DNA from: Escherichia coli | GTDB taxonomy: Bacteria; Pseudomonadota; Gammaproteobacteria; Enterobacterales; Enterobacteriaceae | Assembly (NCBI RefSeq): GCF_009931435.1 | Contig: NZ_CP043414.1 | Direction: 5' to 3' (one strand) | Length of the DNA: 64,000 bases | In this document: positions 1,717 to 60,988 of the stretch, in pieces | Layout: every line of letters starts with the position of its first letter | Position numbering within the stretch: position 1 is the first letter of the stretch | Made by a program: the position numbers and the translations under genes | Notes under the pieces: model-generated | Databases searched by the model: none | What the model saw: only the letters and a program-made list of their open reading frames with translations | Told to the model about the DNA's origin: nothing

Positions 1717-4218
1717 ATGGCCCTGATTGTGGAATTTATTTGTGAGCTACCTAACGGCGTACATGCCCGTCCGGCAAGCCACGTTGAAACGCTGTGTAAT
1801 ACTTTTTCATCACAAATTGAGTGGCATAACCTGCGCACTGACCGCAAGGGCAACGCCAAAAGCGCCCTTGCGCTGATTGGCACCGATACGCTGGTGGGCG
1901 ATAGCTGCCAGTTACTGATTTCCGGGGCCGATGAACAGGAAGCGCATCAGCGTTTAAGCCAATGGCTGCGCGATGAATTTCCCCACTGCGACGCGCCGCT
2001 GGCGGAAATAAAATCTGACGAACTGGAGCCGCTGCCGGTATCATTAACCAACCTGAATCCGCGTATTATCCGCGCCCGCACCGTATGCAGTGGTAGCGCA
2101 GGCGGCATTCTGACGCCAATCTCTTCTTTAGATCTCAACGCGCTGGGTAACCTCCCCGCAACCAACGGCGTTGACGCCGAGCAATCCGCGCTGGAAAACG
2201 GCCTGACGCTGGTACTGAAAAATATTGAGTTTCGTCTGCTGGATAGCGACGGTGCTACCAGCGCGATTCTGGAAGCTCACCGCTCCCTGGCTGGCGATAC
2301 TTCCCTGCGCGAACATTTACTGGCAGGCGTCAGCGCCGGATTAAGCTGCGCCGAAGCAATTGTCGCCAGTGCGAATCACTTTTGCGAAGAGTTCGCCCGT
2401 TCCAGCAGCAGCTACCTGCAAGAACGCGCGCTGGATGTGCGCGATGTCTGCTTCCAGTTACTCCAGCAAATCTACGGCGAGAAACGCTTTCCGGCACCGG
2501 GCAAGCTGACGCAGCCCGCCATTTGTATGGCGGATGAACTGACCCCTAGCCAGTTCCTCGAACTGGATAAAAATCACCTCAAAGGATTGTTGCTCAAAAG
2601 TGGCGGCACTACCTCACACACGGTGATCCTTGCCCGTTCGTTCAACATTCCGACGCTGGTTGGTGTGGATATTGATGCCCTTACTCCGTGGCAGCATCAA
2701 ACGATTTATATCGACGGCAACGCTGGGGCGATTGTGGTTGATCCTGGAGAAGCCGTAGCCCGTTATTATCAGCAAGAAGCCCGCGTACAGAACGCCCTTC
2801 GTGAGCAACAGCGTGTCTGGCTGACCCAACAAGCCCGTACCGCTGACGGTATCCGCATTGAAATTGCCGCTAACATCGCTCACTCCGTCGAAGCGCAGGC
2901 CGCATTCGGCAATGGTGCGGAAGGCGTTGGTTTGTTCCGCACTGAAATGCTCTATATGGATCGCACCAGTGCACCGGGCGAAAGCGAGCTGTACAACATT
3001 TTTTGTCAGGCGCTGGAGTCCGCCAACGGACGCAGCATTATTGTGCGCACTATGGATATTGGCGGTGACAAACCCGTTGATTATCTGAATATTCCCGCAG
3101 AGGCAAACCCGTTCCTCGGTTATCGCGCCGTACGTATTTATGAAGAGTACGCCTCGTTGTTTACCACGCAGCTACGATCGATCCTGCGCGCCTCCGCTCA
3201 TGGCAGCCTGAAAATCATGATCCCGATGATCTCTTCAATGGAAGAGATCTTATGGGTGAAAGAAAAACTGGCGGAAGCTAAACAGCAGCTGCGTAACGAA
3301 CACATTCCGTTTGATGAGAAGATCCAGCTCGGTATCATGCTTGAGGTGCCGTCAGTAATGTTCATCATCGATCAATGCTGTGAAGAGATTGATTTCTTTA
3401 GTATTGGTAGTAATGATCTGACGCAATATCTGCTGGCAGTGGATCGCGATAACGCTAAGGTAACTCGTCACTACAACAGCCTGAATCCGGCATTCTTACG
3501 AGCGCTTGATTACGCCGTGCAGGCAGTGCATCGCCAGGGCAAATGGATTGGTCTGTGCGGTGAACTGGGGGCGAAAGGTTCCGTGCTGCCGTTGCTGGTC
3601 GGTTTAGGGCTGGATGAGTTGAGCATGAGTGCACCGTCAATTCCGGCGGCGAAAGCGCGGATGGCGCAACTTGATAGCCGCGAATGCCGCCAGTTACTCA
3701 ACCAGGCAATGGCCTGCCGTACTTCGCTGGAAGTGGAACACCTGCTGGCACAATTCCGCATGACGCAACAGGACGCACCGTTGGTCACCGCCGAGTGCAT
3801 CACGCTGGAAAGCGACTGGCGCAGCAAAGAAGAAGTGCTCAAAGGCATGACCGATAACCTGCTGCTGGCGGGCCGCTGCCGCTATCCGCGTAAACTGGAA
3901 GCCGACTTGTGGGCGCGCGAGGCCGTTTTCTCTACCGGTCTGGGCTTTAGTTTTGCCATTCCACACAGCAAATCAGAACACATTGAGCAGTCCACCATCA
4001 GCGTGGCGCGTCTGCAAGCGCCAGTGCGCTGGGGCGATGATGAAGCACAATTCATCATTATGTTAACCCTTAACAAACACGCTGCCGGCGATCAGCATAT
4101 GCGCATTTTCTCGCGCCTCGCTCGCCGCATCATGCACGAAGAATTCCGTAACGCGCTGGTTAACGCCGCCTCTGCCGACGCTATCGCCAGCCTGCTGCAA
4201 CATGAACTGGAACTGTAA
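1717..4218 (+). CDS. ptsA: Multiphosphoryl transfer protein (HPr/EI/IIA fusion)
   Basis: 833-aa ORF with HPr-like N-terminus, PEP-utilising EI core and IIA-like C-terminus; synteny with frwC and fsaB. Confidence 0.9.
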
Positions 4219-11701: not shown

Positions 11702-13261
11702 TTACTTAATATCTTTCACGCGCATACCGTTGATCTGTTCATCCGTGATGGTATTACCCGCTTTAAAGTAATCAACCACCGCGTGATAAACGTAATAACC
11801 GCCCGTCGTATTGCGCGCTTTACCCTCGGTAAACGCGGTAAAACCATCTCCACCATCAGCAAGGAAACTCTGAGTGGCAATGTGGTAAACCGTCGCATCT
11901 TCAATCGGTTTGCCATTCAGAGTCAGCGAGATAACCCGCTGACCAACCGGCTTGCTGCTGTCGTACTTCATTTCCAGGCCTTTCGATACCTGTAAAACGC
12001 CATTACTCAAACTTGCGCCGTGTTCCATCAAACCGCGTAATTGTTTACCCGTGAGTTCCATCGTCACCAGTTCGTTGGGGAACGGGAAGGTACTGATGAC
12101 GCCACCCATCGTAATTGCACCCGCCGGGATCTCATTGCGAATCCCACCAGAGTTGGTTAACGCCAACTGGGTATTTTTACCCGCCGCTACCAGTAAAGCG
12201 TCCGCCGCCAGGTTCCCCAGGGATGCCGATTCACCATAGGCACGTTTTAATTCAACTGGCGATTGCGCCACCGTTTGCTGCACGACTTCATCCAGCTTTT
12301 TATTCCAACTATCAATCACCTGTTTTGTTTGCGCATCGGGCTTCCACTCGTCGGCGTAAAGGGTTTTAAGCTCGAAGTTTTTCACCGTAAAAGTGTGCGG
12401 TTTCTCTTTGAAGTCGAGAACCAGTTTACCCACATCAATCCCTCCGCTGTCAGTGGAAAGGATGAGCGTATTGCCGACTTTAATCGGTTCCGGCGTACCC
12501 ACATGTGCATGTCCGGTGATCAAAATATCCAGCCCTTTCACCTGACTTGCCGTCTGTATATCTTTATCCAGCGCGCGACGCACATCTGTGCCTCCCATAC
12601 TGGACTGGCGGGCCGGAACACCTTCGTGAATCAGGGCGACGGTCAAATCAACCTTGCCTTTGAGTTCATCGATATAACGTTGTAACCACTTAATTTCATC
12701 ACGCGCTTCAATACCCACTCGCGTGGCAGCGGATACCGTGTCATTAAAGGCAAATACTCCGTGCAAACCAATCACACCAATTTTCACGCCGTCTTTTTCA
12801 ATAATGGTATATGGCTTATCCCAGAATGATTTACTGCTGTTCTGATAAAAAATATTACCCTGCACAATCGGGAATTTTGCCTGACTCAACTGTAATAGGG
12901 TGTTGTCCCAGCCGTGATCAAATTCATGATTCCCTATAGTGACCGCATCGAACGGCATGGTATTCATAATATCGATAATCGCCTTGCCTTTAGTCAGGCT
13001 GCTGATATACGGCCCGGTAAAATAGTCACCCGCATCAAAAAACCAGGTCGCTTTGTTTTTAGCTTTTTCTTGTTTAACAAGCGTAGTGATATTTGCCCAG
13101 CCGCCAATATCCCGTTTACCGTCAGCAATCCACGGCACTTTATAAGGCTCTACATGTGCATGGAGGTCGTTGGTATAAATAATGGTGACATCTTTGGCGC
13201 AGGCCCAAAACGGCAGTGTTAATGCGATACCCGCAGCAAGCATTTTAATTTTCATAAACAA
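11702..13261 (-). CDS. Secreted bifunctional metallophosphatase/5'-nucleotidase family protein (paralog A)
   Basis: 519 aa; N-terminal signal peptide; calcineurin-like motifs DLHAHV, GDYFTG, GNHEFD, HEG, GHAHVG; C-terminal 5'-nucleotidase-like domain (UshA/CpdB architecture). Confidence 0.8.
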
Positions 13262-13313
13262 TCCCTTCCAGTGAGATAAAGGATTGCTACATTACGTTCT
13301 GAAAGGCTTTTTT

Positions 13314-13331
13314 ATGTGAGAATACTCACAT
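13314..13331. promoter_or_regulatory. Perfect palindrome ATGTGAG-AATA-CTCACAT in divergent intergenic region
   Basis: 18-bp dyad seen between the divergently transcribed nucleotidase A and Cys-rich protein genes; candidate operator. Confidence 0.3.
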
Positions 13332-13387
13332 CCAGAGGCGATAACTGTAGGACAAAATCAACGACCTTATGAAATCGTTGGTGATAT

Positions 13388-14515
13388 ATGTCAAATCTGT
13401 TTGCGATTAATGTCTGTAAAACGTTCGGTTGTCGAAATTTGGGATTGGCCTCATCGGAAGATTACAGTTGGCCAGACTATAAACTGGGTTTTCCGGCACT
13501 GCACTGCCAGGCATGCGGAAGTTACCCCCCTTTGTTTGATGAACAACAATTTCGTGACTGGTTGTCAGTTCACATGACTGCGTGTGCCATAGAAACAGGG
13601 CATTTTTGTCCATCATGCTATTGTAAAGAAAAGATTTTTTATGGCCACAACCCGCAGGGAACACAACGCGTTCAATGCCGTTCATGCAAAAAAGTCTGGA
13701 CTCCGAAACAGCAGCCAGCAAGAGAAATTACGTATCCCCAGTCCATTGAAACCGTTCAACTGTTCATGCCCTTTCAAGGAGCCAGCGCAGTACAAAAGCT
13801 CTATGTTTTAGTCAGTCTTGACGCCACTCGTGGCAACATCCTTCATCTCTCCACGAATTATACGCAACATCAGACAGGAGACAGTCTGCGGTACAGTTAC
13901 AGAGGCAATACAGAACCAACTGAGCACCATAGCGATATTGTGCAGAGGGTAGATATGCGTGAAGCGCAATTCTTGCGCCGGAGCCAGTTCGATGAAATTC
14001 AGTATGGCAGTGCTGTGCTCAAGCGCAACGGCAAGGGAGCCATACTACGCCCGGTTATCACGGCACACGGGCATTTCAGAATACTGAAAATCCGCTTTCC
14101 ACATGTCAAAACGCATATCATTTCACACGAATGTTTTCTGAGAGGCGCAATTATTACAGCCTGGGCAGATCAGTTCCGCCAACAACAAGGCGAACTTTGG
14201 TTCGTAGAAGAAGAAATCAGCGACCGTAACGCTGATATTCCCTGGCATTTTCAGGGAACGACATACCATGGTTGGTGGCAAAATCAGTGGCAACGCTGGG
14301 GGCAGGGGAATAACAGCAAGATGGTCTGCCTGCTCACAGGAGTCTCCTTAGAAAGGGGCGCAAATGTTTCTCTGGCAACCAGTCGTTGCTTTATCACATG
14401 GCTGACAGACCAACACGACTTTACCCAAAGCGCGTTATTATCCGCAGGTCGCGTAACGAAAATGCTGACCTCACTGGCGTTAAAATACAATGAATCGCTC
14501 ACTCCATCTTGTTAG
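13388..14515 (+). CDS. Cys-rich (putative zinc-ribbon) protein of unknown function
   Basis: 375-aa ORF; N-terminal clusters C-x2-C...C-x2-C (CQACGS, CPSCYC, CRSCKK) resembling zinc-ribbon modules; no confident family assignment. Confidence 0.55.
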   Translation: MSNLFAINVCKTFGCRNLGLASSEDYSWPDYKLGFPALHCQACGSYPPLFDEQQFRDWLSVHMTACAIETGHFCPSCYCKEKIFYGHNPQGTQRVQCRSCKKVWTPKQQPAREITYPQSIETVQLFMPFQGASAVQKLYVLVSLDATRGNILHLSTNYTQHQTGDSLRYSYRGNTEPTEHHSDIVQRVDMREAQFLRRSQFDEIQYGSAVLKRNGKGAILRPVITAHGHFRILKIRFPHVKTHIISHECFLRGAIITAWADQFRQQQGELWFVEEEISDRNADIPWHFQGTTYHGWWQNQWQRWGQGNNSKMVCLLTGVSLERGANVSLATSRCFITWLTDQHDFTQSALLSAGRVTKMLTSLALKYNESLTPSC

Positions 14516-14744
14516 TCAATACACTCGACAAACGACCATAAATTAATGGGATCACTATTTCTCATTTAATTAAATATATGAATGTATGACTGAAAAATAT
14601 AATCACAGTCAATGTTTAATTAATAACATTATTTGTTACTAAGATCACATAATACTTTCCTGACCTATGCTCTTATAAAAATAAGACACGGTGTTCCTTT
14701 TATTTAAATAATTCAACCAATGTAACAACCCCTATCAAGGAGGG

Positions 14745-16298
14745 ATGATGAGAACTGTATTTACGACTTTATCAGTCATATTCAGCGTGATGTTTTCTCA
14801 CAGTATACTAGCTCAGGACGTTACTATTTATTATACGAATGATATTCACGCACATGTCAATCCGGCAAAAATTCCCGCTGTTGATAAGAACAGACTTGTA
14901 GGTGGTATGGCTAATATTGCAGGCATCGTTAATGAAGCGAAGAAAAAAAACAAAGATGTCTTTTTCTTTGATGCAGGCGACTATTTTACCGGTCCGTATA
15001 TCAGTACCCTGACCAAAGGTGAAGCTATTATTGATATCATGAACACCATGCCCTTTGATGCGGTGTCCGTTGGTAATCACGAGTTCGATCACGGCGTGCC
15101 CAATATGGTATCTCAGTTATCAAAAGCAAAATTCCCCATTCTGCTGGGAAATATTTACTACACCGATACAAATAGACCAGTTTGGGATCATCCGTGGACC
15201 ATTATCGAAAAAGATGGTTTAAAGATTGGTGTGATTGGATTGCATGGTGCATTCGCTTTCTATGATACAGTCGCGGCAAAAGCACGTGAAGGCGTAGAAG
15301 CCAGAGACGAAATTAAATATTTAAATAAAGCACTTGCAGAATTAAAAGGTAAAGTCGACATTACCGTTTTGCTAATTCACGAAGGTGTTCCGGCGCGTCA
15401 ATCAAGCTTTGGTAGTAAAGATGTGGAGCGGCTACTACAGGCAGATATTGAGACAGCTAAAAAAGTGAATGGTGTTGATGTCTTAATTACCGGTCACGCA
15501 CATGTCGGAACACCGCAACCAATAAAAGTTAATAACACATTAATTGTATCTACCGATGCATACGGCACCGACATCGGAAAACTTGTGCTTGATTACAATC
15601 CGAAAACAAAGAAAATTGATAGTTATAATGGTGAGTTAATCACCATCTTTGCAGATCAATTTAAACCTGACACCATCGTTCAAAATACTATCGATAAATG
15701 GAGCGTAAAGCTTAACAAAATCACACAGGAAGTTGTCGGCCATTCTCCCGTAGTTTTAACACGTGAGTATGGCAGTTCTTCTTCTACCGGTAACCTTATT
15801 CTGGATGCAATGATGGAAAAAGCACCTGATGCCATTGCCGGATTTCAAAATAGCGGTGGGATGCGAGCTGATTTTCCTAAAGGTGATATCACACTGGGAG
15901 ATGTTATTAGCACATTCCCCTTTAATAATGACCTCATCGAGATGGATTTGACGGGCCGCGATCTCAAATCATTGATGACGCATGCAACCAATCTAACTAA
16001 CGGTGTGTTACAGGTTTCAAAAAGCGTTGCGGTTGTCTATGACAGCAAAAAACCACTCAACCAGCGGTTAATCTCTTTCACCATTAACGGCAAACCCGTG
16101 GAAGATAATCAAACATATCGTATTGCCACGCACTCCTTTTGTGCCAGTGGTGGTGACGGTTTTGAAGCATTTTTGAATGGAAAAAATGTGAAGACGATAC
16201 CGGGAACAACCTCGGCGGAATCTATCATCGATTATTTCAAAAATCATAAACCTGTCACCCCAGACTTAACTAAACGAGTCATGGACGTCGCCAAATAA
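14745..16298 (+). CDS. Secreted metallophosphatase/5'-nucleotidase family protein (paralog B)
   Basis: 517 aa; signal peptide; same metallophosphatase motif set as paralog A but most divergent of the three. Confidence 0.8.
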   Translation: MMRTVFTTLSVIFSVMFSHSILAQDVTIYYTNDIHAHVNPAKIPAVDKNRLVGGMANIAGIVNEAKKKNKDVFFFDAGDYFTGPYISTLTKGEAIIDIMNTMPFDAVSVGNHEFDHGVPNMVSQLSKAKFPILLGNIYYTDTNRPVWDHPWTIIEKDGLKIGVIGLHGAFAFYDTVAAKAREGVEARDEIKYLNKALAELKGKVDITVLLIHEGVPARQSSFGSKDVERLLQADIETAKKVNGVDVLITGHAHVGTPQPIKVNNTLIVSTDAYGTDIGKLVLDYNPKTKKIDSYNGELITIFADQFKPDTIVQNTIDKWSVKLNKITQEVVGHSPVVLTREYGSSSSTGNLILDAMMEKAPDAIAGFQNSGGMRADFPKGDITLGDVISTFPFNNDLIEMDLTGRDLKSLMTHATNLTNGVLQVSKSVAVVYDSKKPLNQRLISFTINGKPVEDNQTYRIATHSFCASGGDGFEAFLNGKNVKTIPGTTSAESIIDYFKNHKPVTPDLTKRVMDVAK

Positions 16299-16332
16299 AA
16301 TATCATTTATCAGTCTATTTATTTAACAAGGA

Positions 16333-17958
16333 ATGCGAATGAAAACAGTGCAGCGTACTTTACTTGCCGCAACATTGCTGACTATTTTTTCGGTTTCAGT
16401 CATGGCGCAGGATGTCACGATTATTTATACAAATGATCTTCACGCTCATGTGGATTCTTATAAAGTGCCGTATATCGCAGACGGAAAACGCGACATTGGC
16501 GGCTTTGCCAATATATCTACTTTAGTAAAACAAGAGAAAGCGAAAAATAAAGCCACCTTTTATTTTGATGCTGGAGACTATTTCACCGGCCCTTATATCA
16601 GCAGTCTGACAAAGGGCGAAGCAATAATTGACATTATGAATACCATGCCTTTTGACGCAGTATCAATCGGTAATCATGAGTTTGACCATGGCTGGGATAA
16701 TGCCCTGCGACAATTAAGCAAAGCGAATTTTCCTGTTTTATTGGGCAATGTTTATCATAAAGAGAGTGAGAAACCCTTCTGGAACAAGCCCTACACCATC
16801 CTGGAAAAAGATGGCATCAAGATTGGTATTATTGGGCTACACGGCGTATTTGCATTTAATGATACGGTCTCGGAGCTCTCTCTCCAGGGACTCGATAATG
16901 ACAATAATAACCGCTTTGATAAATCTTCCGAGACCCTTAAGAATCAGGGGATTGAAGCACGTGATGAAGTGAAGTATTTGCAACATTATATCGACGAGTT
17001 ACGTGATAAGGTTGACCTCACTGTGGCGCTGGTTCATGAAGGCGTTCCGGCGCGTCAGTCCAGCATTGGCAATACAGATGTTAGACGCGCTCTTGATAAA
17101 GATATTCAAACCGCTAGCAAGGTGAAAGGATTGGATATTCTGATTACCGGGCATGCCCACGTCGGAACGCCAGAACCAATCAAAGTCGGCAACACCTTAA
17201 TCCTTTCAACTGATAGTGGCGGTATCGATATTGGTAAATTAGTCCTTGATGTCAACCCTACAGCTCGTACCCATAAAATGAAGAGCTTTGAGCTGAAAAC
17301 AGTTTATGCCGATGAATGGATACCCGATCCAACGACACAAAAAGTTATCAATGGCTGGAATAAAAAACTGGCGGATATTGTACGCCAACCAGTGGGTGAA
17401 TCATCGATTGCATTAACTCGCGCCTATGGTGAGTCATCGCAACTAGGCAACCTGTTTACCGATGCAATGCTTGTCGCTGCTCCGACTGCACAGATTGCAT
17501 TGATAAACTCCGGCAGCTTACGTGCGGATATAAATGCAGGCACGATTACCTTTGGCGACATTACCAGTACATTCCCCTTCAAGAATGAACTTACTGAAAT
17601 GGATCTCAGCGGTAAGGATCTGCGTAACCTACTGGAACACGGGGCATCGCTTACCAATGGCATCCTGCAAATGTCAAAAGGCGCAGAAATGCGCTATACC
17701 CCGCAGAAACCAGTAGGTCAGCGCATAGTATCTTTTAAAATTAATAGTGAAGAGATCGTTGATACGAATATTTACCATGTTGCAACAACGACTTTCCTTG
17801 CACTGGGGGGCGATGGTTTTCTGGCATTCAAAGAAGGGAAAAATGTTCAGGTCCGCGCCGGAAATAACATGTCCGATGTCGTGATCGATTATTTGAAGAA
17901 AGGCCACAAGATTACGCCTGCACAGGTAAATGAAATGCGGGTGGACGTTAGCAAATAA
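16333..17958 (+). CDS. Secreted metallophosphatase/5'-nucleotidase family protein (paralog C)
   Basis: 541 aa; closely related to paralog A over most of its length, with a 20-aa insertion (ELSLQGLDNDNNNRFDKSSE...). Confidence 0.8.
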   Translation: MRMKTVQRTLLAATLLTIFSVSVMAQDVTIIYTNDLHAHVDSYKVPYIADGKRDIGGFANISTLVKQEKAKNKATFYFDAGDYFTGPYISSLTKGEAIIDIMNTMPFDAVSIGNHEFDHGWDNALRQLSKANFPVLLGNVYHKESEKPFWNKPYTILEKDGIKIGIIGLHGVFAFNDTVSELSLQGLDNDNNNRFDKSSETLKNQGIEARDEVKYLQHYIDELRDKVDLTVALVHEGVPARQSSIGNTDVRRALDKDIQTASKVKGLDILITGHAHVGTPEPIKVGNTLILSTDSGGIDIGKLVLDVNPTARTHKMKSFELKTVYADEWIPDPTTQKVINGWNKKLADIVRQPVGESSIALTRAYGESSQLGNLFTDAMLVAAPTAQIALINSGSLRADINAGTITFGDITSTFPFKNELTEMDLSGKDLRNLLEHGASLTNGILQMSKGAEMRYTPQKPVGQRIVSFKINSEEIVDTNIYHVATTTFLALGGDGFLAFKEGKNVQVRAGNNMSDVVIDYLKKGHKITPAQVNEMRVDVSK

Positions 17959-17970
17959 TAAAAAAATTAT

Positions 17971-18007
17971 AATGCCATTCATTCACTGAATGGCATTATT
18001 TTTCTCT
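17971..18007 (+). terminator. Hairpin plus T-run between nucleotidase C and the tsx-like gene
   Basis: AATGCCATTCA-TTCAC-TGAATGGCATT followed by ATTTTTCTC. Confidence 0.45.
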
Positions 18008-18036
18008 AAATCAACAATAGATAATGAGATATATTT

Positions 18037-18897
18037 ATGTGTATAAAAAAGCACGGGATAGCTTTATCGATTCTATTAATACCTTGCATTGGAAACGCTC
18101 AGGAAATTAAAAGTGAGGAAGGCTGGTTACATCAAAGCTTGAATGTCATTGGTCGCACAGACTCTCGCTTTGGCCCAAGGCTGACTAACGACCTCTACCC
18201 TGAATATACTGTAGCAGGAAGAAAAGACTGGTTTGATTTTTATGGTTATGTTGATCTACCAAAATTCTTTGGCGTCGGCAGTCACTATGATGTTGGGATC
18301 TGGGATGAGGGCTCACCACTATTTACGGAAATAGAACCTCGGTTTTCCATTGACAAATTGACCGGATTAAATCTTGCGTTCGGCCCTTTTAAAGAATGGT
18401 TCATTGCAAACAACTATGTCTATGATATGGGTGACAACCAGTCATCCCGGCAAAGTACATGGTATATGGGGCTTGGTACAGATATCGACACGGGTCTACC
18501 AATTAAGCTTTCTGCCAATATATACGCCAAGTATCAGTGGCAAAACTATGGTGCCGCTAATGAAAATGAATGGGACGGATATCGATTCAAAATAAAATAT
18601 AGCATTCCTCTTACCCATTTATTCGGAGGGCGATTGGTATACAATAGTTTTACTAACTTTGATTTTGGCTCCGATCTTGCGGACAAATCACACAATAATA
18701 AACGAACCAGTAATGCTATTGCTTCAAGCCATATCCTTTCCCTGCTATATGAACACTGGAAATTTGCATTTACACTACGTTATTTTCACAACGGTGGACA
18801 ATGGAATGCTGGGGAGAAAGTTAACTTCGGAGATGGTCCATTTGAATTAAAAAACACAGGATGGGGAACCTATACTACTATTGGTTATCAATTTTAA
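18037..18897 (+). CDS. Tsx-family nucleoside-specific outer-membrane channel paralog
   Basis: 286 aa; signal peptide; long collinear similarity to E. coli Tsx ([72 protein letters not shown]-terminal GY-F). Confidence 0.85.
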
Positions 18898-32917: not shown

Positions 32918-33072
32918 TGCGCAAACGATGCGAGGCGGATCGAAAAATTCAATATTCATCACACTTTTCATGAAAATTCTGTAACCGTTTTCACGCGCTA
33001 TCTGCTAAAAATGTTGCCGATGTGAAGTAAACATGGAAGTAGTACGCCTGCCGTGCCGGGCGAGGAGTGAGT

Positions 33073-34098
33073 GTGAAAGCGAAGAAGCAGGAAACTGCCG
33101 CGACCATGAAAGACGTTGCCCTGAAGGCAAAAGTCTCTACAGCGACCGTCTCCCGAGCATTAATGAATCCCGATAAAGTCTCCCAGGCCACCCGTAATCG
33201 GGTTGAAAAAGCGGCCCGGGAAGTAGGTTATTTGCCGCAGCCTATGGGGCGCAACGTCAAGCGTAATGAATCCCGTACCATTCTGGTGATTGTCCCGGAT
33301 ATCTGCGATCCCTTCTTTAGCGAAATTATTCGCGGTATCGAAGTTACGGCGGCAAATCACGGATATCTGGTGCTGATTGGCGACTGTGCGCATCAAAATC
33401 AGCAGGAAAAAACCTTTATCGATTTGATTATCACCAAGCAAATTGATGGCATGTTGCTGCTGGGTTCAAGGCTGCCGTTTGATGCCAGCATTGAGGAACA
33501 GCGTAATCTGCCGCCGATGGTGATGGCGAACGAATTTGCGCCGGAACTGGAGCTGCCTACAGTTCATATCGACAATTTGACCGCGGCATTTGATGCAGTA
33601 AATTATTTATATGAGCAAGGTCATAAACGGATTGGCTGTATAGCCGGTCCCGAAGAGATGCCGCTGTGTCACTACCGCCTGCAAGGCTACGTTCAGGCGC
33701 TGCGTCGCTGCGGCATTATGGTTGATCCGCAATACATCGCCCGGGGCGACTTCTCCTTTGAAGCCGGAAGCAACGCGATGCAACAGCTGCTTGCTCTTCC
33801 GCAACCGCCTACTGCTGTCTTCTGCCATAGCGATGTAATGGCGCTCGGCGCACTTTCTCAGGCAAAACGCCAGGGGCTGAAAGTCCCGGATGATCTGTCC
33901 ATAATCGGTTTTGATAACATCGACCTGACGCAATTTTGTGATCCGCCGCTGACAACCATCGCGCAGCCGCGTTACGAAATCGGTCGGGAAGCTATGCTGT
34001 TATTGCTTGATCAAATGCAGGGGCAACACGTTGGCAGTGGCTCTCGTTTAATGGACTGCGAACTTATCATCCGGGGATCAACGCGCGCGTTACCTTAA
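33073..34098 (+). CDS. cytR: LacI-family transcriptional repressor CytR
   Basis: GTG start, 341 aa (KAKKQETAATMKDVALKAKVSTATVSRAL HTH). Confidence 0.88.
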   Translation: MKAKKQETAATMKDVALKAKVSTATVSRALMNPDKVSQATRNRVEKAAREVGYLPQPMGRNVKRNESRTILVIVPDICDPFFSEIIRGIEVTAANHGYLVLIGDCAHQNQQEKTFIDLIITKQIDGMLLLGSRLPFDASIEEQRNLPPMVMANEFAPELELPTVHIDNLTAAFDAVNYLYEQGHKRIGCIAGPEEMPLCHYRLQGYVQALRRCGIMVDPQYIARGDFSFEAGSNAMQQLLALPQPPTAVFCHSDVMALGALSQAKRQGLKVPDDLSIIGFDNIDLTQFCDPPLTTIAQPRYEIGREAMLLLLDQMQGQHVGSGSRLMDCELIIRGSTRALP

Positions 34099-39994: not shown

Positions 39995-40356
39995 TTAATA
40001 AATACGAGCGCACTTTAGTTAGCTCCGATTGTATGAAGCCGCGCCATCGCTGTCCAGCGGCACGCCTTGCAGATTACGGTTTGCCACACTTTTCATCCTT
40101 CTCCTGGAGACATAATCCACGCAAATCGAAAATGTTAATAAATTTGTTGCGCGAATGATCTAACAAACATGCATCATGTACAATCAGATGGAATAAATGG
40201 CGCGATAACGCTCATTTTATGACGAAGCACACACATTTTAAGTTCGATATTTCTCGTTTTTGCTCGTTAACGATAAGTTTACAGCATGCCTACAAGCATC
40301 GTGGAGGTCCGTGACTTTCACGCATACAACAAACATTAACTCTTCAGGATCCGATT

Positions 40357-42733
<2,377 letters not shown>

Positions 42734-56852: not shown

Positions 56853-57111
56853 TTCCATCACCTGTCGGCATATTTTTAAGGGCTGATGCGTAATTCCTCA
56901 ACGGAGCATCAGTGTTGATGAAAACGAAGATAGACATTCATTTAATCAATAAAAGTGATCAAAACCACTTCAATTGAAGCACTGTTTTATTTTTATCGGA
57001 TCATTGTTTTTATTTTGAAATTGATCACAAAAAAACCACCGCCGTTGGCGATGGTTCATTTTTTAAGCTGATATGCGGCGTAAACGCCTCATATCAGCAG
57101 GCGGCAAATGA

Positions 57112-57828: not shown

Positions 57829-58016
57829 GCCGTACTTTTCGTAAGGGTATGGTTTTGCAGGAAAATGCCCGAGATGTGAAGCAAATCACCCACTTAATGC
57901 CGTGATTGCCAGTAAATCGACAACGGCGGCAACAGGCGAAAGGTTAATCGACAGCACGATTTTTACACTCATCTCGTCGGAGAAGTGACGCGACGAAAAA
58001 TGATGAGGATAAGAAG

Positions 58017-60966: not shown

Positions 60967-60988
60967 AATTGTGAACATCATCACGTTC
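60967..60988. promoter_or_regulatory. CRP site of the rhaBAD promoter (RhaS half-sites follow downstream)
   Basis: TGTGA-acatca-TCACG in the sequence CACCACAATTCAGCAAATTGTGAACATCATCACGTTCATCTTTCCCTGG, recognised as the classic PrhaBAD. Confidence 0.65.

Follow-up and report, generated by a model that had tools for sequence, protein, structure and literature searches.

Canonical CRP-N sites are 16-bp boxes of the form TGTGA-N6-TCACA in which the sequence of the spacer is free. The lac CRP site, for example, reads TGTGAGTTAGCTCACT. Such boxes are found in the intergenic promoter regions of genes for carbon or nucleoside scavenging, and their G and C contacts are the most conserved bases. The CRP consensus, together with the special weight of the G at box position 4 and the C at box position 13, comes from Genomic SELEX of 323 sites (PMC3105977). 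Few natural sites have a perfect core; within the first quarter of Table S4 of the same paper, azuC (TGTGATTTGTATCACA) is the only K-12 site listed that has one (PMC3105977). The site described here, in a 64-kb stretch of Escherichia coli DNA (the window, by which the whole analysed stretch is meant), shares the box, the free spacer, the kind of setting and the strongly conserved G and C contacts. It differs from the canonical examples in that it belongs to an accessory island that K-12 lacks, does not figure in any regulon list, and combines a perfect core with an additional invariant G at 13320.

One CRP site may also serve two divergent promoters, and 11 such pairs in K-12 as well as a model system have been described (PMC3105977). 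In araBAD-araC, xylAB-xylFGHR and glpEGR-glpD a single box lies midway in a short region, as it does at this locus. The difference would be that both promoters here are class II, with the site at about -41 of each, as judged from -10-like hexamers. El-Robh and Busby reportedly carried out the model study of a single CRP site shared by divergent promoters in 2002.

The promoters that combine CRP with CytR (deoP2, udp, cdd, tsx-P2, nupC and nupG) have the same theme as the genes considered here, that is, the catabolite-controlled uptake and breakdown of external nucleosides and nucleotides, and a Tsx paralogue is present in the island. In contrast to those promoters, the intergenic region in the window contains neither tandem CRP boxes nor the TTGCA core of the CytR octamer (GTTGCATT). 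A CytR-CRP complex was rejected for the window on these grounds, and the local partner of CRP, if there is one, would be another protein.

The last comparison concerns the elements next to the CRP dyad and not the dyad itself. InsA of IS1 is a repressor with a zinc finger and a helix-turn-helix, and it binds the IS1 ends, which overlap its own promoter. The Cys-rich protein encoded to the right of the dyad has a weak N-terminal match to the IS1/IS1595 zinc domain and a transposase-like core, and an invariant inverted repeat overlaps the 5' region of its own gene. Unlike the IS1 gene, the Cys-rich gene is single-copy, syntenic, linked to nucleoside genes and not mobile, and the match to the zinc domain falls below the threshold.

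The island between metF and metL

The dyad lies in an accessory island of E. coli between metF and metL. The order of genes is nucleotidase A, the Cys-rich gene, nucleotidases B and C, and a Tsx-type nucleoside channel; all three nucleotidases are periplasmic. A genome paper of 2026 refers to the island as 'GR 31, metL..metF' and suggests a role in nucleoside processing, without regulatory data. A search found no literature on the regulation of the island and no binding or expression record for the site. K-12 lacks the island, so resources on the K-12 regulon do not cover the site. The 132-bp region that contains the dyad is present in 1841 of 5426 complete E. coli genomes (about one third), including UTI89.

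The reference annotation was the RefSeq annotation of NZ_CP074749, which is 99.9% identical to the window. Nucleotidase A (11702-13255, minus strand) is a UshA-like metallophosphatase/5'-nucleotidase (Pfam Metallophos and 5_nucleotid_C; NCBIfam; RefSeq) with an N-terminal signal-like sequence. In the reference genome its start is the ATG at 13255 and not the TTG at 13261. The intergenic region therefore extends from 13256 to 13387 and has a length of 132 bp, not the 126 bp given in an earlier note on this DNA. The same note placed the dyad in the centre of the region, and that placement holds, since the dyad is centred at 13322.5, 1 bp from the midpoint of the region (13321.5). The divergent right-hand gene (13388-14515, plus strand) encodes a Cys-rich 'cytoplasmic protein' of 375 amino acids with N-terminal zinc-finger-like Cys pairs and an RNase H-like core that resembles those of transposases and integrases. 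Its start at 13388 is backed by the conservation of homologues from M1 onward.

The make-up of the island varies. In Citrobacter, Klebsiella, Kosakonia, Phytobacter and some Escherichia, metL directly follows the Cys-rich gene. Since the Cys-rich gene abuts metL in most other species, the divergent pair of genes is the conserved unit. By comparison of window positions 13388-18897 with the other loci, nucleotidases B and C and the tsx paralogue were added to the pair in this E. coli lineage and in B2 strains, among them UTI89. Two diverged nucleotidase/Cys-rich modules on separate contigs occur in Escherichia sp. MOD1-EC7003, E. coli SCPM-O-B-8794 and Citrobacter sp. wls619, and each copy has its own CRP box (loci L005/L030, L007/L012 and L020/L034). 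Within E. coli at least three alleles of the Cys-rich protein are found (100%, ~89% and ~73% identity to that of the window).

The dyad and its conservation

The 18-mer ATGTGAGAATACTCACAT at 13314-13331 was described in the earlier note as a perfect palindrome. Its position is correct and its 7-bp arms, ATGTGAG and CTCACAT, are perfectly complementary. The centre, AATA, is not self-complementary (A13321 faces A13324), and 16 of the 18 positions are symmetric. The description as TGTGAG-N4-CTCACA is accurate. Read as a 16-bp box, 13315-13330 is TGTGA-GAATAC-TCACA, the exact core consensus of cAMP-CRP, centred at 13322.5 within a full 22-bp site at 13312-13333. The likeness of TGTGA to a CRP half-site had been remarked on, and that remark understated the case: TGTGA and TCACA are both present, at exactly the canonical 6-bp separation.

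In the 64-kb window the exact sequence TGTGA-N6-TCACA occurs once, against 0.06 copies expected, and at least one copy was seen in 6 of 100 shuffles. When up to two mismatches are allowed there are 34 matches against 27 expected, so it is only the exact box that stands out. The dyad as a whole (7+4+7) is likewise found once in the window even with two mismatches allowed (0.19 expected). Any CRP weight matrix would give an exact consensus core a score close to its maximum.

Two related types of site were considered for the dyad and rejected. CRP-S sites have the form TGCGA-N6-TCGCA. The window has TGTGA and TCACA instead; a left half of TGCGA is seen in four Enterobacter orthologues only, and the right half is always TCACA. 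A LacI-type operator would have TGTGAGC and GCTCACA abutting at a central CG, whereas the half-sites here are 4 bp apart (AATA) and C13325 is not conserved.

A few features of the window touch on the box. The left half-site holds a minimal start-stop reading frame, ATG-TGA (13314-13319), and a Shine-Dalgarno-like GAAAGG (13301-13306), which is part of a conserved block, lies 7 nt ahead of it; this mini-ORF is probably incidental to the CRP sequence. Other CRP-like boxes with one or two mismatches are located upstream of genes at 1592-1607, 40218-40233, 57014-57029, 57875-57890 and 60970-60985. For example, a box with one mismatch is found about 120 bp upstream of a ptsA/ptsP-like ORF (1717-4218), and one with two mismatches about 130 bp upstream of a 281-aa ORF (40357-41202) taken to be glpF. 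As rough comparators, these boxes illustrate how seldom the core is perfect in real or likely sites.

Conservation was examined by a profile search for the Cys-rich protein in species-representative genomes. This yielded 37 loci, from which 28 distinct orthologous intergenic regions of about 13 genera were aligned, among them Escherichia, Citrobacter, Klebsiella, Enterobacter, Kluyvera, Kosakonia, Phytobacter, Pluralibacter, Pseudocitrobacter, Silvania, Superficieibacter and a contig labelled Rahnella. At nearly all the Enterobacteriaceae loci the Cys-rich gene is divergent from an orthologue of nucleotidase A. The CRP core is found 64-66 bp upstream of the Cys-rich start codon at these loci (72 bp in Klebsiella).

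The conservation resembles a CRP footprint. The right half-site, TCACA (13326-13330), is invariant in all 28 orthologues, and thus so are C13327 and C13329 (box positions 13 and 15). In the left half G13316 and G13318 (box positions 2 and 4) are also kept in 28 of 28, with T13317 kept in 23 and A13319 in 24. Changes in this half-site are confined to T1, T3 and A5, giving TGCGA, TGTGC, CGTGC or TGGGG. The spacer between the half-sites is fixed at 6 bp in every orthologue and variable in sequence; positions 13321-13325 have 0.4-1.0 bits, compared with 2.0 at the contact bases. The parts of the dyad that extend beyond the CRP core fare differently. The outermost pair, A13314/T13331, is kept in 14 of 28 and the innermost, G13320/C13325, is kept as G-C in 12, the base at 13325 being C in 12 orthologues, T in 9 and A in 7. 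G13320 itself is invariant while its symmetric partner is not. No compensatory change was detected in the dyad arms among the 28 orthologues; 30 of 196 cells are broken, all of them on one side only. One-sided, uncompensated decay of a half-site is what is expected of a protein site and not of a structure. The interval 13272-13382 is free of indels in all 28, although 13331-13352 varies freely in sequence, which indicates that the distance between the site and the flanking elements is constrained. Taken as a whole, the pattern fits a pair of half-sites read by a conserved global factor and neither a hairpin nor a dedicated operator that co-evolves with its protein.

More distant relatives give a similar picture. 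Next to Cys-rich homologues that are only 24-38% identical, four of the seven independent intergenic regions contain a CRP core with no or one mismatch (TGTGATCATACTCACA and TGTGATCGCAATCACG, among others); these regions cannot otherwise be aligned. By our estimate a core with at most one mismatch would occur by chance in roughly 1-2% of intergenic regions of that size. CRP is nearly invariant in these bacteria. That the core recurs beside proteins so diverged disfavours a private operator of the Cys-rich protein.

The proposal in the earlier note that the dyad is an operator for a dimeric regulator gains support from the two half-sites at exact N6 and from conservation that matches the CRP contacts in the 28 orthologues. 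From this comparison of sequences the dyad is very probably such an operator, and the evidence favours CRP as the regulator. We consider it quite likely that 13314-13331 is a functional CRP site, and one of high affinity. As a control element it is of an ordinary kind, unrecorded so far for this island.

Candidate promoters and flanking elements

A single -10-like hexamer is conserved downstream of the site on the minus strand, toward nucleotidase A. This hexamer, TAATGT (13289-13294), lies 28.5 bp from the CRP centre and would place CRP at about -40.5. Its positions 1, 2, 3 and 6 (on the plus strand A13294, T13293, T13292 and A13289) are the same in all 28 orthologues, and position 4 varies freely. 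On the plus strand, between the site and the ATG of the Cys-rich gene, CAAAAT (13353-13358) alone is both conserved and plausible as a -10-like hexamer. It lies 30.5 bp from the CRP centre, which would put CRP at about -41.5 to -42.5; A13354, A13357 and T13358 (positions 2, 5 and 6) do not vary among the orthologues, and 27 of the 28 have C13353. For class II sites the canonical distance to the -10 element is 29.5 bp, and both candidate geometries are 1 bp off the ideal of -41.5. Activating CRP sites at -40.5, -41.5 and -42.5 are all found in the RegulonDB data given in Table S4 of Shimada et al. (PMC3105977). Both candidates are weak, with 3-4 of 6 matches; a strict sigma-70 scan of the intergenic region returned no promoter, and the region contains no -35-like hexamer. 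The absence of a -35 element together with a weak -10 is typical of class II promoters that depend on an activator.

These features suggest the following mechanism. When glucose is low and cAMP rises, the CRP homodimer would bind the box in the middle of the 132-bp divergent region. From there one dimer would most likely activate transcription in both directions, leftward into nucleotidase A and rightward into the Cys-rich gene. With the site about 41 bp upstream of each presumed start, CRP would take the place of the missing -35 element on either side. The two start sites would be only about 82 bp apart. In this way the nucleotide-scavenging module would come under catabolite control, as do deo, udp, cdd, tsx, nupC and nupG. 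Occupancy by CRP, activation in place of repression, the two promoters and their starts, and use in both directions are each predicted from the arrangement of the motifs. The full model, in which a single CRP dimer activates both divergent promoters from class II positions, is one that we regard as evenly balanced.

Conservation in the region is not limited to the CRP box. A nearly invariant block in the 28-orthologue alignment, TTACGTTCTGAAAG (13292-13305), lies between the CRP site and the -10 candidate of nucleotidase A and is a possible second operator. If transcribed, the block could base-pair, through its reverse complement CCTTTCAG, with the Shine-Dalgarno region CTGGAAGG (13271-13264). 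On the other side of the site the alignment contains an inverted repeat, ATCAACGA-N10-TCGTTGGT (13357-13382, left arm 13357-13364). The right arm with its flank, AAATCGTTGGT (13372-13382), is the same in all 28 orthologues, a degree of conservation that exceeds that of the CRP box. The repeat would lie at or just after the plus-strand start, and it abuts the ribosome-binding site of the Cys-rich gene. When G-U pairs are counted 96.9% of its cells pair, without compensatory change, and variants of the left arm ATCAACGA keep G-U pairing on the plus strand. The predicted fold is weak (-4.4 kcal/mol, z = -1.9). This repeat is a candidate for a second operator or for a hairpin in the 5' UTR. A terminator scan had its sole match at the repeat (13359-13380, minus strand), where there is no upstream gene to use it. 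Neither flanking block had a good fit to Cra-like, LacI-like, DeoR, PurR, PhoB or IHF sites in a by-eye comparison with consensus sequences.

The stretches at 13292-13305 and 13372-13382 equal or surpass the CRP core in conservation. Since G13320, the block at 13292-13305 and the invariant stretch at 13372-13382 are conserved in ways that CRP does not explain, at least one further factor, or else RNA structure, would have to be involved. If the conserved repeats are transcribed as RNA structures, the starts would be further upstream than proposed above.

About 103 bp upstream of nucleotidase B there is a second CRP-like box, TGTTACTAAGATCACA (14634-14649, one mismatch), through which CRP might also control the nucleotidase B-C-tsx genes. 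The box is identical in UTI89, where the whole intergenic region is 94% identical, so its conservation there says little. Most of the other species are without nucleotidase B, C and tsx.

The Cys-rich protein and rival readings of the dyad

The Cys-rich protein has no match to a Pfam family. Residues 74-136 have a sub-threshold match to the N-terminal zinc domain of IS1/IS1595 (InsA-like), with 20 bits against a cut-off of 100 bits. AlphaFold models the protein with confidence (pLDDT 92.7). It belongs to a small family, for which 123 of 1.84 billion representatives match at E <= 0.001. Among distant homologues, genes for nucleoside or nucleotide scavenging are adjacent in 6 of the 7 contexts read, usually in divergent orientation. 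For example, in Motilimonas the homologue is divergent from deoD-like and deoB-like genes and is itself followed by tsx. Other contexts have nupC with a nucleoside phosphorylase; deoB, a phosphorylase and a NupG-like transporter; or a porin with a class B acid phosphatase and a class II phosphodiesterase. In two of the distant contexts 5'-nucleotidases are the neighbours. The protein may be a transposase-derived one that is tied to nucleoside scavenging, and possibly a local regulator beside CRP.

This family bears directly on how the dyad is read, since the earlier note also raised the option of a dedicated repressor site, where a dimer of the Cys-rich zinc-finger protein would bind TGTGAG-N4-CTCACA and repress one or both genes. 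Divergent pairs of a regulator and its target are common, and the Cys pairs, the weak InsA-like match and the transposase- or integrase-like core make DNA binding by this protein plausible. Its family persistently adjoins scavenging genes, and the invariance of G13320 goes beyond what CRP requires. However, the arm features that would distinguish such an operator are kept in only 14 and 12 of the 28 orthologues, and conservation coincides exactly with the CRP core at N6. An operator private to this protein should drift as the protein does, yet the core recurs next to homologues of only 24-38% identity, and the elements at 13292-13305 and 13357-13382 are better candidates for the target of a local regulator. 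Furthermore, a CRP site at about -41 from both candidate promoters would normally activate and not repress. Repression by the Cys-rich protein through the dyad is thus an idea that we find very unlikely. Less probable again is a role of the dyad through its structure, as a DNA cruciform, as an RNA hairpin that terminates or attenuates transcription, or as the remnant of a mobile-element end. The stem, folded as single-stranded DNA, is more stable than shuffled sequence (-6 kcal/mol, z = -3.7), and a transposase-like gene adjoins the dyad. Against this, the terminator scan predicts none at the dyad, neither strand has a T-run after it, Rfam gives no match at E <= 1, no pair has changed on both sides in the 28 orthologues, and the single copy in the window is located inside the module and not at its ends. 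A chance palindrome without function can practically be dismissed: an exact CRP core does appear in a few window shuffles, and a few are expected per whole genome, but position-specific conservation over some 13 genera, where both the spacer and the flanks vary, excludes neutrality.

The remaining alternative accepts CRP as the ligand and alters only the use made of it. CRP might serve one gene only, or it might act negatively, in an anti-activated or repressing complex of the CytR-CRP type with a second factor. Two additional invariant blocks flank the site, and TTGCA or TGCAA cores adjoin the CRP box in 9 of the 28 orthologues. The nucleoside genes are the classical CytR regulon, and cytR appears to be in the same window (ORF 33067-34098, identified from gene order). 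In the window's own intergenic region, however, there is no TTGCA or TGCAA and no second conserved CRP box; the sole other match with at most two mismatches, at 13380-13395, overlaps the start codon and has variable positions. Use for one gene only is countered by the two -10 candidates, which are equally conserved and equally placed. Asymmetric or negative use is therefore rated as unlikely, and activation of both genes by CRP is the preferred reading. In orthologues with a CytR-type core the core lies beside the CRP box, in the part aligned to 13331-13352, as in Phytobacter ursingii (CATTTGCAATAGTTGCAGG); it is absent from the window allele. Co-regulation by CytR and CRP may thus occur in some genera only.

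A bolder extension of the CRP reading makes the box one half of a switch. In it the Cys-rich protein, as a domesticated IS1/IS1595-like transposase with an RNase H-like core, would regulate nucleoside and nucleotide scavenging genes by binding TTACGTTCTGAAAG and ATCAACGA-N10-TCGTTGGT, acting with or against CRP. Such a switch would resemble that of CytR with CRP, with an unrelated, transposase-derived protein as the partner. It is offered as a speculative idea that is doubtful as it stands.

If the CRP site is confirmed, the CRP regulon would gain an accessory island for nucleotide scavenging that is carried by about one third of E. coli, including ExPEC such as UTI89, and by many Enterobacteriaceae. 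It would also provide a compact natural case of one CRP dimer at class II distance from two divergent promoters. The CRP site itself is a routine extension of the regulon, and it offers a testable handle on genes of uncharacterised function and regulation. The more novel lead is the Cys-rich, transposase-like family, which tracks nucleoside genes across bacterial orders.
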